Shown here: positions 39,001 through 48,000 of the stretch, one piece after another
Position numbering within the stretch: position 1 is the first letter of the stretch
Layout: each line of letters starts with the position of its first letter
From: Gemmatimonadota bacterium
GTDB lineage: Bacteria; Gemmatimonadota; Gemmatimonadetes; Palauibacterales; Palauibacteraceae
NCBI GenBank assembly: GCA_963666735.1
Contig: OY762926.1
Location: forward strand, 2,688,001-2,752,000
Direction: 5' to 3'
Length of the DNA stretch: 64,000 nt
Program-made: the position numbers

Positions 39001-42000
39001 ATGTCGAGACGCAGGAATACAACATCATGACGGTGTACCTGAGCGAAGCGGCCCGCTTCGATCCGGCGGAGCTGACCCGGAACTTCTACGCCACCTCCAG
39101 TTGTGGCGTCTGCGGCAAGGCGTCTCTCGAGGCGATAGAGATCCGGGGTTGCGCCCCGATCCCGGCGGGAGCGACGGTATCCGCAGACGTCGTGCGATCG
39201 CTCCCGGACGCCCTGCGTCGCCGGCAGCCGGTGTTCGAGCGAACCGGGGGACTCCACGCGGCCGGCCTGTTCGACCCGACGGGCGAACTGCAACTCCTCC
39301 GTGAGGATGTCGGTCGCCACAACGCGCTCGACAAGGTGATCGGCGAGCGGTTCCTGGGCGGGGCACTCCCCCTGGGCGAGTCCGTGCTCGCGGTGAGCGG
39401 GCGCGCCTCGTTCGAGATCATGCAGAAGGCGCTCGCCGCCGGAATCCCTATCGTCGTCGCCGTCGGCGCGCCGTCCAGCCTCGCGGTGGATGTGGCGAAG
39501 GAGTTCGGGATGACGCTCATCGGTTTCGCGAAGCCGACGGGGTTCAACGTCTACACGGGCCGCCACCGCATCGACTGAAGCACCGGGTTCACGGCGGCAG
39601 CGTTCTCCCCACCTTCAGCGCCAGATCGACGGCGGACTTCCTCCAGCCCGTCAGCGTCGATCTGCGGTAGGCGTCAGCGGTACGCTTCACCCCCTCGCTC
39701 ATCGTCGGATAGGGGTGAACCAGCGACCCGAGCGTCCCCAGCTTCACCCCCGCCTTCATGGCGAGCGAGATCTCCGCGATCATCGTCCCCGCGCCCGGGG
39801 CGAGGATATGTCCGCCCAGGATCCGGCCTCCCTTCCCGACGACGATCTTGACTCGGCCCATTGCGGCGCGCTCGGCGATGGCGCGGTCCAGGTTCCCGAT
39901 GTCGTAGGCGTGCGCGGACACCGCGGACCCGTGGCGATCCACGGCCTCGGCTTCAGTGAGCCCGACATGCGCGAGTTCGGGCTCCGTGTACGTGCACCAC
40001 GGGATCACGCCGTAATCGATGTTCGCGCGCACGGGGAAGAGCGCGTTCTGCACGACGGTGCGCGCTTCGTGGTCGGCGACGTGCGTGAACAGGAAGCCGC
40101 CGATGACATCGCCGGCGGCGAAGATGTGTTTCCGGGAGGTGCGCAGCTTCGAATCGACGGTGACCCAGCCTTTCGCGGTCTCCACGCCCGCCGCGTCGAG
40201 TCCCATGTCCTCCGTGTTCGGCGCGCGCCCCGCGGCGACCAGCACCTCGTCGACCTCGAACGTCTCGGGCGCGGCCGCCGGATGGTCGCCGACTGCGTCC
40301 CCGGCGGCGGCGATCGTCACGCGCCGCCGATCTCCCGCCCGGTCGACCCGCGTCACGACATGGCCGGTCCGGATCTCGATGCCCTCCCCGCGAAGCCTGC
40401 TCGTCAGCAACTCCGCAAGTTCGGGCTCTTCGCGCACCATGAGCCGGTCGAGCAACTCCACGACCGTGACCTCCGAGCCGAGGCGGCGGAAGGCCTGGGC
40501 GAGTTCGACGCCGATCGGCCCGCCCCCGACCACGGCGAGCGAGGCGGGAATCGTGTCGCGGTCGAAAGCCTCGGCGTGAGTGAGGTAACCCGCCTCCTCG
40601 AGCCCCGGGATCGGCGGCACCGCGGCCCGGGAGCCGGTGGCGACGACGAAACGGCGTGCACGGATGCGGCGGCCGTCCACCTCGACTTCGTGGGGCGAGA
40701 CGAAGCGCGCCGCTCCCTCGACCACATCGACGCCCATGGCGCGAAAACGCTCCGGATCGTCGTGCGGCTCGATCTCGGCCCGAGCGGCGCGGACGCTGGC
40801 GAGAACGTCCGGTCCCTCGATCGTCGGCTGGACGGGGCGCAGCCCGTGCGCGGCGGCGGCACGAAAATGATGCGCCACCCGGGCCGAGCTGATCAGGGCC
40901 TTGGAGGGCACGCATCCGGTCCAGAGGCAGTCGCCGCCCAGGCGGTCGCGCTCGATCAAGGCCACGCTCGCACCCAGCCCCGCGCTCCCCGCAGCCGTTA
41001 CGAGACCGGCGGTGCCCCCGCCGATGGCGACGATGTCCAACATCTGGTCTCGAGCCACGTTGCTACTCCCCGTAGAGGTTTCTCCGCGAACTCTCCCTCA
41101 CTGTACACCCGCTGTACACCCGCCGTGGCGAAACCGTGCCGAGCGTGGCCGATTTTCCTTGCCGGGCGTCCCGATTCACGCTTAGCTTCGCTTCGTGCAG
41201 AATCCTACACCCCAAGCTGCGGTGTCACGGTCGGGCTCAATGAAAAGCCGCGTCCAGCCGCCTCCGATCCTTGACAAGTGTCGTGAACTAGCGACCGTGA
41301 ACGGTCTCCGCGAGGCCGGCCTCTATCCGTACTTCATGCCCATAGAGGCCTCGCACGACACCTGGGTCGTCATCGACGGCGCGCGCAAGATCATGGTGGG
41401 CTCCAACAACTACATGGGGCTCACGCACGATCCGCGCGTCCTCGAGGCGGCCCGTGACGCCCTCAACAAGTTCGGAAGCGGCAACACGGGCAGCCGGTTC
41501 CTCAACGGCAACCTCAATCTGCATGAGCAACTCGAGGCCGAACTCGCCGACTTCACCTGCATGGAGGCCGCGCTCGTATTCTCCACCGGCTACCAGACGA
41601 ATCTGGGTACGCTGGGCGCGTTGATCGGCCGCGCGGACACGGTCTACATCGACAAGCTGGACCATGCCAGCCTCCAGGACGGTGCACGCATGGGGCTCGG
41701 CCGCACCCGGCGCTTCAATCACAACGACTTCGCGACCCTGCGGCGCATGCTCGAGGCCGAGACGCCCTCGCGCGGCAAGCTCATCGCGGTGGACGGCGTG
41801 TACAGCATGGAAGGCGACATCGCCGATCTGCCCACCCTGGTCGAACTGAGGCGGGAGTACGGCGCGGCCATCCTGGTGGATGACGCGCACGCCGTGGGGG
41901 TGCTGGGCGAGACCGGGGCCGGGACCGCCGAGCACTGGGGACTCACCGGCCAGGTGGACCTGATCCTCGGCACCTTCTCCAAGTCCTTCGCCTCGATCGG

Positions 42001-45000: not shown

Positions 45001-48000
45001 CGCACCGCCCTCGCCGTGGCCGCCGCCTTCTTCGTCTCCTATCTCATCTTCATGTTCTTCCCGGTCGCCGGCCCCCGGTACGAGTTTGCCCAGATCGGCG
45101 GCGGGATCGGCGAGGGCACGCTGTTCGGGATCGTGCACGGGATCCTGGAGGCCGGCTCGTCGAAGGGCACGGCCTTCCCCAGCTCCCACATCGCCGCCTC
45201 CCTGGCGGCGGTCGTGAGCGCCGGACGCGAGGATCGGCGCTGGTTCTGGCTCCTCATCATCCCGGAACTCGCGTTGACCGCCGGGACGGTGTACGGTCGC
45301 TTCCATTACGCGACCGACGCCCTCGCGGGCATCCTGCTCGGACTGCTGGTCTGCGCCGTACTGCATGCGTCCGGATCCGGGGCCGGGGGCGCCCGGGAAG
45401 CCGAGGGCGGGCAACCCGCGGCCTGAGCCGCGCATCAAAGCGGTGGATTCGGAAGGTGACCTTCAGAGGGATGACGTGGACGAACGCGACCTGATCGCCT
45501 GCGCCAAAGCGGGAGAGCGATCCGCGATGGGGGAGTTGTACGAACTCCACGCGCGGCGCGTCTACACCGTGATCCGCCGCCTCGTGGGCGACGATCACCT
45601 CGCAGAGGATCTGTCCCAGGAAGCCTGGATCCGTGCGTTCGAGAAGCTCCACCTTTTTCGCGGGGACGCGGCCTTCGGCACGTGGCTCTACCGGTTGGCG
45701 ACGAACGTGGCGCTCAACCGGCTTCGCAGGTCGTCGAAGCGACGGCCCGTGGAGTCCGCCGCCGAGCTTCCCCGCGTGACGCGGGCGCACGACGACGTGA
45801 TCGTGACCCGGCGGGTCCTGACCAAGGCGCTGGACCAGCTGCCGCCGGGGTACCGGAAGGTCCTCGTGCTGCACGACGTGGAAGGCTGGACGCACAACGA
45901 CATCGCCGAGTTTCTGGGTTGTTCGCCCGGCACGTCGAAGTCGCAGTTGCACAAGGCGCGGGCGCGCATGCGGAAGCTCATCGCTCCGGAAGATTCCGGG
46001 AACGGCGGTGCGCGGGGCGAAGCGCGCCTGTGAGAGGGATGGAAGAGGGATAGAAGGGATAGAAGAAATGGCGAACCACATGGATGCCGAGCGAATCTCG
46101 GCACTGCTCGACGAGCCGTGGGCCGACCAGGACTGCCGGGCCCACCTCGATGCGTGCGGGGATTGCCACGCGGAGTTCGAGAGATTGAGCCGGCTGCGCA
46201 TGGCGTTGTCCGCACTCCCGGATGAGAAGGCGCCGAGCGGGCAGTGGGCCGGGATCGAGGCCGCGCTCGATGCGGGTGAGACGCGGGCCGGCACCGGCTG
46301 GATCGGCCGAGGCGTCGCCGGCCGTCTCTTCGTCCCGGGACCGCTCCAGGCCGCCGCCGCCCTCGTGTTGTTTGCCGGCGGCGTGATCGCCGGCCTGCAG
46401 TTCACCGGCGGCGGCGTCGCGAACTCGCCGGATCCGGCCTCGGATCCTCCAGCCGTCGTTTCCACCGATGATGGTCGCACCCTCGTGGACGGTCTCAGCC
46501 GGATGGAATCGCTGCGGTCGCCGCTCAGACAGGTGGGAGAGGGGGGGACGGGTCCCGCGTCGGAAGGCGGGTTGGGGGAGAGAGATCCCCTGGCGGCGGC
46601 ACAGAGATTGGCGAGGCTGGAGGGATCGATCCGGGCACTGCGGGACCGCCTCGAGACGAATCCCGACGATCTGCTCGCCAGCGCCTACTTGCTGGAATTC
46701 GTGGAGACGCGCGATCGACTCGCGGAGGAACTCGGCCGCGCAAGCGGGACGCGGACCTGGTGACCATGCCTCTCTCGCGGTCCCCGCGCCCGCTCGCCGC
46801 GGCTCTCGCCGCGGGCGTCCTGTCGCTCACGCCCCTTTCCGGTGCGGCACAGGAGACCCCGGCGGCCGCCGCTCCCGGCTGGATCGGGGTGCGGGTCGAC
46901 GAGCGCTACAACTGCGGCTGGGAGACACCGGAAGATTGGAAGAACTGCACGCTCGTCGTCCAGGTTCGTGAGATTCAGGAAGACGGGCCGGCGGCGCGTG
47001 CGGGGCTCCTCGTCGGCGACCGACTGGCGGCGATGAACGGCGTGGGCATCTCCCTCGCCAACCTTTCCGAGCTGCTTGCATCGATCCGCCCGAGCGTCCC
47101 GGTACGATTGCAGGTCACACGAGACGGGGCTGACCGCACGCTGGAAGTCATTCCCGACACCCGGCCCCCGGATGCGGACGACGTACCGATGGAGGGCCGT
47201 CGGACGATCGTGACCACGACCGGGAACCGGCGGCGCGGCACGTTCGTCTTGTGGCTGACGGCCTCCGCCGGGCGCGACTCCACCGAGCGCGGCCGCGCCG
47301 GCGTCGCCCTCGCCTTCCGCGATACGGATGACACCGGCGTCGCCGTCGAGCCCTCCGCCGTGCGGGTCGTGGACGGCCGACTCAACGTGCTGCCCGTTCG
47401 CGACCGACCGGTCTCGGAGTTGCCGGCGGTCCGTGTGGAAATACTCCGTGATCTGCAGCGCGAGTCGGAATCGGCCTACCGGGACTTCACGCTGGCGCTC
47501 CAGCACGTCGGGGCTGTGCGGGCGCGCCTCTCGGCGACGGAGTTCCGGCGCCGCGTGGCGCGTGCCGCTCAGGTGGCGCGGCCGGAGCCCGGTCTCGCCG
47601 CCCGCCTCCACCGTACGTTCGCGGGGGCCGAGTTCGAGCCCGTGCGCAACTTTTCCGACCGTGTCGGTATGGATGGTCTCCTCGTGCTCAGGGTCGCGCG
47701 GGGGACGGTCACCGCCCGGCTCGGGATCAGGCCGGGAGATCTCCTCGTGAGAGCCGCCGACCGTCCGACACGGGACCTGGAGGAACTCGTCACCGCGCTC
47801 GATTCGGAACCCGGATCGGGCCCGAGCGTGGTGTGGGTCCGGGGAGGTCGCGAGATGAGCGCAGTCTGGCCCCGACGCTGACAGCGTTGGCGTGCTGGTC
47901 ATTGGCGCCTGGCCACGGATGGCTTTCTGCATGGCTCGAACGCGTCCGCGAGAGTCGACGGGGATTATGCGAAAAGGGCCAGTGCGCCTCCGACTCGACG

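Follow-up and report, generated by a model that had tools for sequence, protein, structure and literature searches.

A complete bacterial ceramide operon, as supported by sequence comparison, was found in a Gemmatimonadota genome within the window (the whole 64,000-nucleotide stretch analysed, contig OY762926.1, contig positions 2,688,001 to 2,752,000), and it carries a fourth gene whose product is modelled with the fold of Aur1, the catalytic subunit of yeast inositol-phosphoceramide (IPC) synthase. Comparative evidence suggests that this gene may represent a second bacterial family of IPC synthases, separate from the BT_1522 type, a proposal that we regard as evenly poised. Four ORFs of the same strand, packed or overlapping, occupy window positions 41240-45426, with a sigma factor gene behind them:

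41240-42442, + strand: spt, serine palmitoyltransferase-like AOS enzyme, 400 aa
42459-43589, + strand: bcerS, bacterial ceramide synthase homolog, 376 aa
43589-44542, + strand: cerR, extended-SDR ceramide reductase homolog, 317 aa (PF01370, E 2.6e-30)
44539-45426, + strand: PAP2_3 fourth gene, Aur1-fold membrane enzyme, 295 aa (PF14378, E 6.5e-12)
45476-46033, + strand: ECF sigma factor gene (Pfam sigma70 r2/r4_2), 49 nt downstream of the PAP2_3 gene

These ORF coordinates confirm the four-gene operon with an overlapping PAP2_3 gene described in the genome-wide survey's note. The spacing between spt and bcerS is 16 nt, the bcerS stop and the cerR start share 1 nt (TAGTG), and cerR overlaps the PAP2_3 gene by 4 nt (GTGA), both of the latter genes starting with GTG. 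The PAP2_3 gene is translationally coupled to cerR, which counts for a joint role with the ceramide genes. For spt, an alternative in-frame GTG lies upstream at 41195 and would lengthen the product by 15 aa. The sigma factor match is present in 75 of 78 related loci; here the gene is followed by an anti-sigma-like gene and then a PDZ gene. No terminator-like site was found between the operon and the sigma gene, and the sigma, anti-sigma and PDZ genes may be co-transcribed with the ceramide operon. A promoter and terminator scan gave nothing exceeding shuffled controls. RNA runs were rejected as proof of transcription: they matched related-strain contigs only, with small word shares, and flanking genes were covered too.

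The three ceramide proteins were compared with profile models and with the Caulobacter system. Spt scored best with the NCBIfam serine palmitoyltransferase (SPT) model NF047600 (519 bits, cut-off 640), ahead of the Kbl-like (393 bits) and BioF (389 bits) models, all three scores being below their cut-offs, and its best PDB matches are the serine palmitoyltransferases 8GUH and 3A2B (E 1e-129). On both counts, Spt is closer to SPTs than to Kbl or BioF. Though bCerS has no Pfam or NCBIfam match, it shares 37% identity over ~380 aa (E 1e-73) with the ORF starting at the published Caulobacter bcerS primer. CerR is 32-33% identical (E 8e-24) to the SDR adjoining spt in two loci matching that primer (L323 and L325), in agreement with the 37% and 32% reported by the survey; this E-value falls short of the 1e-30 filter applied in PMC11334938, the two coming from different databases. 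The bCerS and CerR homologs are clustered with spt, and the three enzymes are predicted from homology to produce (dihydro)ceramide through the established bacterial pathway. The pathway of Caulobacter crescentus has been assigned to Spt CCNA_01220, bCerS CCNA_01212 and CerR CCNA_01222 (PMC11087976). Spt is 41% identical to its homolog in the primer-matched loci, and, unlike in Caulobacter, the ceramide genes here form one coupled operon with the PAP2_3 gene. The 20-kb Caulobacter loci showed no relative of the fourth gene; Caulobacter ceramide is decorated with phosphoglycerate by other genes (PMC11324152).

The fourth protein matches Pfam PAP2_3 with 46.1 bits against a gathering score of 27. 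Its triad H217, H256 and D260 is in register with H255, H294 and D298 of Aur1 and is invariant in 114 relatives and in 73 operon rows, within the motifs FPVAGPRY, FPSSH and VYGRFHYxxD; the FPSSH and HY..D motifs noted earlier were thus reproduced. The same holds for the Aur1 fold. The model (pLDDT 94.1) gave only two Foldseek matches at E<=0.001, both Aur1 of Saccharomyces cerevisiae (PDB 9VJ4 and 9IVC; best match E 8.5e-5, TM 0.63), and VIA ranks Aur1 first (Z 18.1, 274 aligned, rmsd 5.5 Å), with LpxE at Z 15.0. The eight-helix Aur1 fold, including the N-terminal helices, is matched by the model, at 15-18% sequence identity and an rmsd of 5.3-6.5 Å. A search with the single sequence did not find Aur1 at E<10, whereas a BT_1522 ortholog as query reaches it at 2e-14.

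An ordinary PAP2 lipid phosphatase unconnected with inositol, acting on ceramide-1-phosphate, a sphingoid phosphate or PGP, is very unlikely. LpxE is the top profile match of the family by E-value (3.1e-6), but over the C-terminal 64 positions only, and alignments with phosphatases are confined to the last 60-75 positions, whereas 270 of the 289 profile positions align with Aur1 (E 1.2e-5), the only full-length match. Likewise, LpxE (6EBU) and PgpB (6FMX, 8BM3) have the core fold and triad in common with the fourth protein (Z 12.9-15.0), and the LpxE core superposes with a lower rmsd (2.8 Å over 162 residues), but only ~160-170 residues align and none of the N-terminal helices. Both phosphatases carry the C3 Arg, as do the aligned acid-phosphatase chains, while in the 73 operon rows the corresponding position 250 is occupied by Thr (77%) or Ala (21%); Aur1 also has Thr there. 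The phosphatase C3 motif S-R-x5-H-x3-D with Arg is absent from the family. PAP2 phosphatases further carry the C1 motif K-x6-R-P; it is absent here, the region reading YLxFxxFPVxGPR, which lacks Lys and has no Arg ahead of Pro. Stand-alone family members in two Poribacteria (G255 and G270), in which neither bcerS nor MIPS (inositol-3-phosphate synthase) was found, fit a phosphatase, yet such an activity leaves unexplained the joint loss with inositol genes described below.

We favour instead a membrane lipid phosphotransferase with ping-pong chemistry of the Aur1 type, the mechanism being carried over from Aur1 (PMC13133130). H256, activated by D260, would take the phospho-head group from a glycerophospholipid with release of DAG, and H217 would then activate the 1-OH of ceramide.

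BT_1522 of Bacteroides thetaiotaomicron is a characterized Aur1-like synthase of IPC, that is, PI-dihydroceramide (PMC9246714, PMC8791184). The fourth protein shares with it the PAP2_3 family as well as a His-His-Asp triad, but identity is only 28% over 79 aa (E 5e-4) and it is not an ortholog. It gave no match at E<=0.001 to NF052609, the model of the BT_1522 type (equivalog cut-off 480 bits), to which the Bacteroides protein P0155, taken as positive control, scored 561 bits. The two families fall into separate clades with a support of 100; in the large tree, which was a quick one without a claimed root, BT_1522 sits on a very long branch and the operon members are not united in a single clade. 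Aur1 and BT_1522 carry the motifs PAAPPWY, PSLH and HHYxxD, instead of which the operon family has PVxGP, FPSSH and FHYxxD. The position of Aur1 H293 is Phe in 96% of operon rows, PAAPPWY reads PVAGPRY, and the EL3 loop is longer in Aur1; the loop shaping the inositol pocket differs from both Aur1 and BT_1522. These motif and loop differences count against the IPC reading. The gene context differs as well, Bacteroides BT_1522 sitting in a MIPS/PIP synthase cluster and the fourth gene with ceramide genes; a PgpA or GtrA partner, as in the BT_1522 system, was not found for it.

Of 251 sampled genomes of the phylum, 157 carry bcerS and only one the BT_1522 type. Strong matches to the fourth family, a count that includes paralogs and relocated copies, occur in 136 genomes, all of which hold bcerS (136/157), and in none of the 94 without bcerS. 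Ceramide genes lie alongside the fourth gene in 63 of 64 assessable loci, the loci being selected by the fourth gene. The survey's count of 44 in 57 loci was not reproduced; nor does its inclusion of Myxococcota stand in full, a relative being present there near the ceramide genes but outside their operon. Within the phylum, family f4, which clusters with loci titled Gemmatimonadaceae, holds bcerS in just 7 of 53 genomes, whereas loci titled Longimicrobiales do have the operon. The operon also occurs in Eisenbacteria and Krumholzibacteria, MIPS being present in every case.

The survey had further based its prediction of IPC on two inositol genes, whose positions were confirmed:

contig 965310-966632: inositol-3-phosphate synthase (MIPS)
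contig 966674-967330: PIP-synthase-like gene

They are 57% (MIPS) and 40% (PIP synthase) identical to their Bacteroides-cluster counterparts and lie ~1.77 Mb from the ceramide operon on the contig; neither was found within the 77 loci examined. Their presence is a weak argument, because MIPS occurs in 83 of the 94 phylum genomes without bcerS; with 235 of 251 phylum genomes positive, and 328 of 340 in a count for family f3, MIPS presence was rejected as evidence for inositol. Co-loss is the better evidence. In three genomes (G041, G204 and G450) clean deletions on contiguous DNA have removed the PIP synthase-MIPS pair and also the fourth gene, while the congeners G483, G327 and G449 retain both. 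A single clade of the three is rejected (p-AU 0.023), which indicates three independent co-losses, against a background of ~4 in 108 for losing the fourth gene while retaining MIPS. Two of the cases prompted the idea and only G450 was found afterwards. In G204, the other strong family match falls in a distinct clade of paralogs that is paired with an SDR. Since each of the three genomes is 1.1-2 Mb shorter than that of its congener, gene loss at large may play a part. MIPS-negatives G027 and G161, with contig breaks, were dropped from the count. In family f3, MIPS is not at the ylbF-tmk site but elsewhere, and synteny was judged by the flanks of its own site; eight of the 12 f3 negatives (G287, G351, G353, G379, G384, G388, G394 and G398) were dropped with flanks missing or at contig ends. 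Six of these eight keep the fourth gene and would oppose co-loss if the absences are real. In G399 the fourth gene is kept, no MIPS or PIP synthase was found and different genes come after the usual site; its assembly is in 510 contigs and 90% complete, hence it is only a possible counterexample.

The most likely donor would be phosphatidylinositol or its phosphate, supplied by the unlinked MIPS and PIP synthase, giving IPC. Transfer of phosphoinositol from PI to ceramide, predicted from three co-losses with one possible exception, has about an even chance of being correct; the co-losses support it, whereas the Myxococcaceae (see below), the Poribacteria and G399 weaken it, so that the case could go either way. 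A PgpA-type PIP phosphatase was not found in the genome, so that no gene is assigned to the PIP-to-PI step, a point against this reading.

The same transfer onto ceramide might use another donor, namely PG or cardiolipin in this genome, yielding ceramide-phosphoglycerol, or PE in lineages that make it. This is unlikely, but several observations fit it: the divergent pocket loop, the two PgsA/Cls-like genes of the genome, and G399, which may contradict co-loss. Head-group switching is also common in the Aur1-type fold (SMS, SMSr, trypanosome SLS). PE itself is an unlikely donor here, because the genome yielded no gene for PssA, Psd or a PLD-type enzyme (Psd and PLD by regular expressions for their motifs). 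In Myxococcus sp. Y35 and Corallococcus coralloides, a ceramide-linked sister enzyme coexists with a BT_1522-type enzyme in an inositol cluster, which suggests a non-redundant product there; however, these sister enzymes are only 28-31% identical, form their own clade and have a different loop (RDCFPSGH). A different donor also leaves the three independent co-losses with the inositol pair unexplained. The Myxococcaceae clade may be a head-group-switched version; that it is a bacterial ceramide-phosphoethanolamine synthase is quite doubtful.

Co-loss would fit equally well an inositol-lipid hydrolase or a different step, such as a phosphatase of PIP or phospho-inositol ceramide, a phospholipase C of IPC, or addition of a second phosphoinositol, as yeast Ipt1 does on modified ceramide. 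Such a role would account for the BT_1522 type alongside the sister enzyme in Myxococcaceae and agrees with the missing PgpA, and R180 and R254 lie near the triad, but these are kept in only 73% and 63% of operon rows, respectively. Moreover, the gene is missing from most MIPS-bearing f4 and f6 genomes and is therefore not the phylum's general PIP phosphatase, and 250 of 251 genomes have no BT_1522 type, so that IPC as a substrate would have no known origin there. We consider such a role unlikely and retain IPC synthesis as the preferred reading.

No paper on the operon or enzyme appeared among the matches listed for searches on Gemmatimonadota sphingolipids or ceramide, bCerS/CerR, IPC/Aur1/PAP2 and myxobacterial lipids. 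The term 'Gemmatimonad' is absent from the main text and preprint of PMC11334938; Gemmatimonadota may already be listed as a predicted ceramide producer, because its 38-phyla figure and supplement lay outside the search. PI-DHC producers without BT_1522 have been reported (PMC9246714), and no EPC synthase is reported as identified in B. thetaiotaomicron (PMC8791184). The family of the fourth gene is a candidate for the attachment of head groups to ceramide in bacteria. Soils, sediments and sponges harbour abundant Gemmatimonadota. Bacteria may have recruited the Aur1 fold twice, the second, ceramide-wired family making IPC across most Gemmatimonadota, Eisenbacteria and Krumholzibacteria, a scenario to which we give somewhat less than an even chance. 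If true, a large and mostly uncultured phylum would make a lipid mostly associated with fungi, plants and Bacteroidota, and this would bear on the origin of inositol-phosphoceramides in environmental lipidomes.

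The ceramide genes and the inositol genes considered here are located as follows.

Features of the window and of the inositol locus in the same genome
Window 34115-41058, opposite strand, upstream of the operon: an ordinary formate-dehydrogenase-like cluster with an FdhD gene (PF02634) and a pyridine nucleotide-disulphide oxidoreductase
Window 41240 to 45426, four genes, all on the same strand: spt (400 aa), bcerS (376 aa), cerR (317 aa) and a PAP2_3 gene (295 aa), the fourth gene
Window 45476-47881, after the operon: ECF sigma factor, anti-sigma-like gene and PDZ protein
Contig 965310-967330: inositol-3-phosphate synthase (MIPS) and PIP synthase

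In the operon, 16 nt separate spt from bcerS, bcerS and cerR overlap by 1 nt, and cerR overlaps the PAP2_3 gene by 4 nt. The best solved relatives of Spt are serine palmitoyltransferases (E 1e-129), and its top NCBIfam model is also one, with a score below the cut-off. Comparison with metagenome loci matching the published Caulobacter primers gave identities of 37% for bCerS, 32-33% for CerR and 41% for Spt. Judged by homology, this is very probably a genuine ceramide operon. The nearest named kin is Ca. Palauibacter (Gemmatimonadota), in which the fourth protein is up to 94% identical. Of 78 related loci, 75 have a match to the sigma factor beside the operon, 43 one to the anti-sigma gene and 44 one to the PDZ gene.

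The catalytic class of the fourth protein was approached through motif and fold. Residues H217, H256 and D260 are invariant across 114 relatives. With the AlphaFold model (pLDDT 94.1), Foldseek returned only Aur1 at E<=0.001, and in the VIA ranking Aur1 came first (Z 18.1, 274 aligned, rmsd 5.5), above LpxE (Z 15.0), whose lower rmsd of 2.8 applies to a shorter alignment of 162 residues. A plain phosphatase is improbable: the family profile gives LpxE a slightly better E-value, but over just 64 positions, while the Aur1 match spans 270, and the C3 Arg kept in phosphatase chains is replaced by Thr or Ala in the family, as in Aur1. Motif and fold thus point to a phosphodiester-acting transferase as the better class. 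For Aur1, PMC13133130 describes the same triad as forming a phospho-His intermediate, from which phosphoinositol is handed to ceramide.

BT_1522 of B. thetaiotaomicron is a characterised Aur1-like PI-dihydroceramide synthase, according to PMC9246714 and PMC8791184. It was represented here by P0155, an ortholog from a Bacteroides locus that scores 561 bits with its NCBIfam model NF052609. P0155 as query retrieves Aur1 at 2e-14, whereas the fourth protein itself does not retrieve it even at E<10 and has zero matches to NF052609. The two are alignable over 79 aa only; three of their motifs differ, and they belong to separate clades. By sequence, then, the fourth protein is not the known bacterial enzyme; a BT_1522-type gene was found in 1 of 251 phylum genomes.

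All four genes were found in 68 of 80 loci, and in 63 of the 64 whose upstream sequence reaches 3.8 kb or more, in a set that was chosen via the fourth gene and is skewed to close kin. In the even sample of 251 phylum genomes, bcerS occurs in 157. A strong match to the family profile (E<1e-25) occurs in 136, a count that includes paralogs, relocated copies and non-independent kin; bcerS is present in all 136, and the profile search found the family in none of the 94 bcerS-negative genomes. Four unpublished genomes (G055, G095, G155, G180) are within these tallies, and no conclusion rests on these four. The operon also occurs beyond the phylum, in Eisenbacteria (L117, L132, L142, L164) and Krumholzibacteria (L152).

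Several variants were also seen. The fourth gene is broken across reading frames in L182 (G125) and L183 (G215), by sequencing error or decay, and P0120 (599 aa) is a member with a fused C-terminal FkbM-type methyltransferase domain. A paralog clade (L209, L214, L215, L220, L227; support 100) carries a VYTQNHY motif and is coupled to an extended SDR upstream, in some cases with a second SDR downstream, distant from spt/bcerS. In one genus of family f6 (G077, G122, G162, G199), bcerS is 73% identical to that of the window, against ~45-58% in other families, and may reflect recent transfer; it stands alone next to a Fic-domain gene in L170:7509-8639 (G077) and L171:6838-7968 (G122).

MIPS and the PIP-synthase-like gene of the window's genome are 57% and 40% identical to their Bacteroides counterparts. 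MIPS occurs in 235 of the 251 phylum genomes, and 83 of the 94 that lack bcerS have it too, so its presence says little on the head group. The near-universal occurrence of both MIPS and PIP synthase in the phylum would predict inositol phospholipids there, with a dephosphorylation step that has no assigned gene, PgpA (the PIP phosphatase type) not having been found in the window's genome. Searches of that genome for PssA, Psd and PLD-type genes, partly by regular-expression motifs, found none; the likely donors that remain are PI, PG and cardiolipin.

Losses rather than presence of MIPS were therefore sought within family f3, where MIPS is missing in 12 of 340 genomes. Eight of these were set aside as assembly gaps (flanking genes absent or at contig ends); the fourth gene is still there in six of the eight. 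Three genomes, G041, G204 and G450, have the two flanks of the PIP synthase-MIPS pair directly next to each other on unbroken DNA; in each of them cerR is followed by unrelated genes, the fourth gene being absent. The two deletion sites are ~20-45 kb apart with the intervening genes retained, and the deletions are therefore separate events. Congeners G483, G327 and G449 possess both the fourth gene and the pair. The Spt+bCerS tree gives each of the three co-loss genomes a sister that retains the fourth gene, and grouping these three as one clade was rejected (p-AU 0.023, quick tree). The background was ~4 of 108 MIPS-bearing f3 genomes without the fourth gene (G108, G142, G151, G152) in a first sample, in which another two carry a frameshifted copy and five were not assessable. 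At this rate the chance of 3/3 or 3/4 co-losses is 5e-5 to 6e-4, and at a 10% rate 1e-3 to 4e-3, the idea itself having arisen from two of the three cases. Compared with their congeners, these three genomes are each smaller by 1.1-2 Mb. G399 (a 510-contig assembly) keeps the fourth gene while neither MIPS nor PIP synthase was found. An inositol-linked role of another sort, hydrolytic or in a second step, is rather unlikely.

In family f4 the operon consists of spt-bcerS-cerR without the fourth gene: L185:8943-14613 and L228 (G112), L186:3626-9067 (G082) and L174:9169-10203 (G050). Those of G112 and G082 are flanked by a CDP-alcohol phosphotransferase, a Gfo/Idh/MocA oxidoreductase and an LPG-synthase-like gene, the last also present in G050, with an additional HAD hydrolase in G112 and class III aminotransferase in G082. 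This set is similar in part to the alternative inositol-lipid cluster that PMC9246714 proposes, and the head group made by the set may be an amino-cyclitol or amino-sugar.

Poribacteria have family members that stand alone, and neither bcerS nor MIPS was found in two closed chromosomes (G255, G270); the wider family is therefore tied to neither pathway. Among Myxococcota, some family match was obtained in 39 of 40 genomes searched, and in 6 of 20 regions an MMPL gene is followed by a full-length relative at 26-32% identity, divergent from spt-bcerS. Myxococcus sp. Y35 and Corallococcus coralloides have an additional BT_1522-type gene within a MIPS-PIP synthase cluster. M. xanthus is cited as a ceramide phosphoinositol producer in PMC9246714, and the BT_1522 type explains this product; the ceramide-linked sister clade there thus need not be an IPC (inositol-phosphoceramide) synthase. 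This clade carries a distinct loop sequence and may use another donor. That the fourth protein of the window likewise uses another donor is unlikely, though a serious candidate. The Myxococcaceae cluster (L470:257-9794 in G505; also L474, L476, L479, L482, L483) consists of a MlaC-like gene, cerR, bcerS and spt (C-terminal extension of ~110 aa), divergent from MMPL and PAP2_3 genes, and is a candidate module for export and decoration. Myxococcus has one more PAP2_3 gene in L471:5109-7944 (G505), with a DUF3419/methyltransferase gene nearby.

Our literature search found no paper on this Aur1-fold family; the phylum may be listed in published supplements or figures. Ceramide is very probably what the fourth gene's product acts on, and of the single explanations IPC synthesis accounts best for its role, at about even chances. 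Neither the pathway nor its chemistry is of a new kind; the novelty lies in a separate, uncharacterised Aur1-fold family linked with ceramide genes in several phyla.
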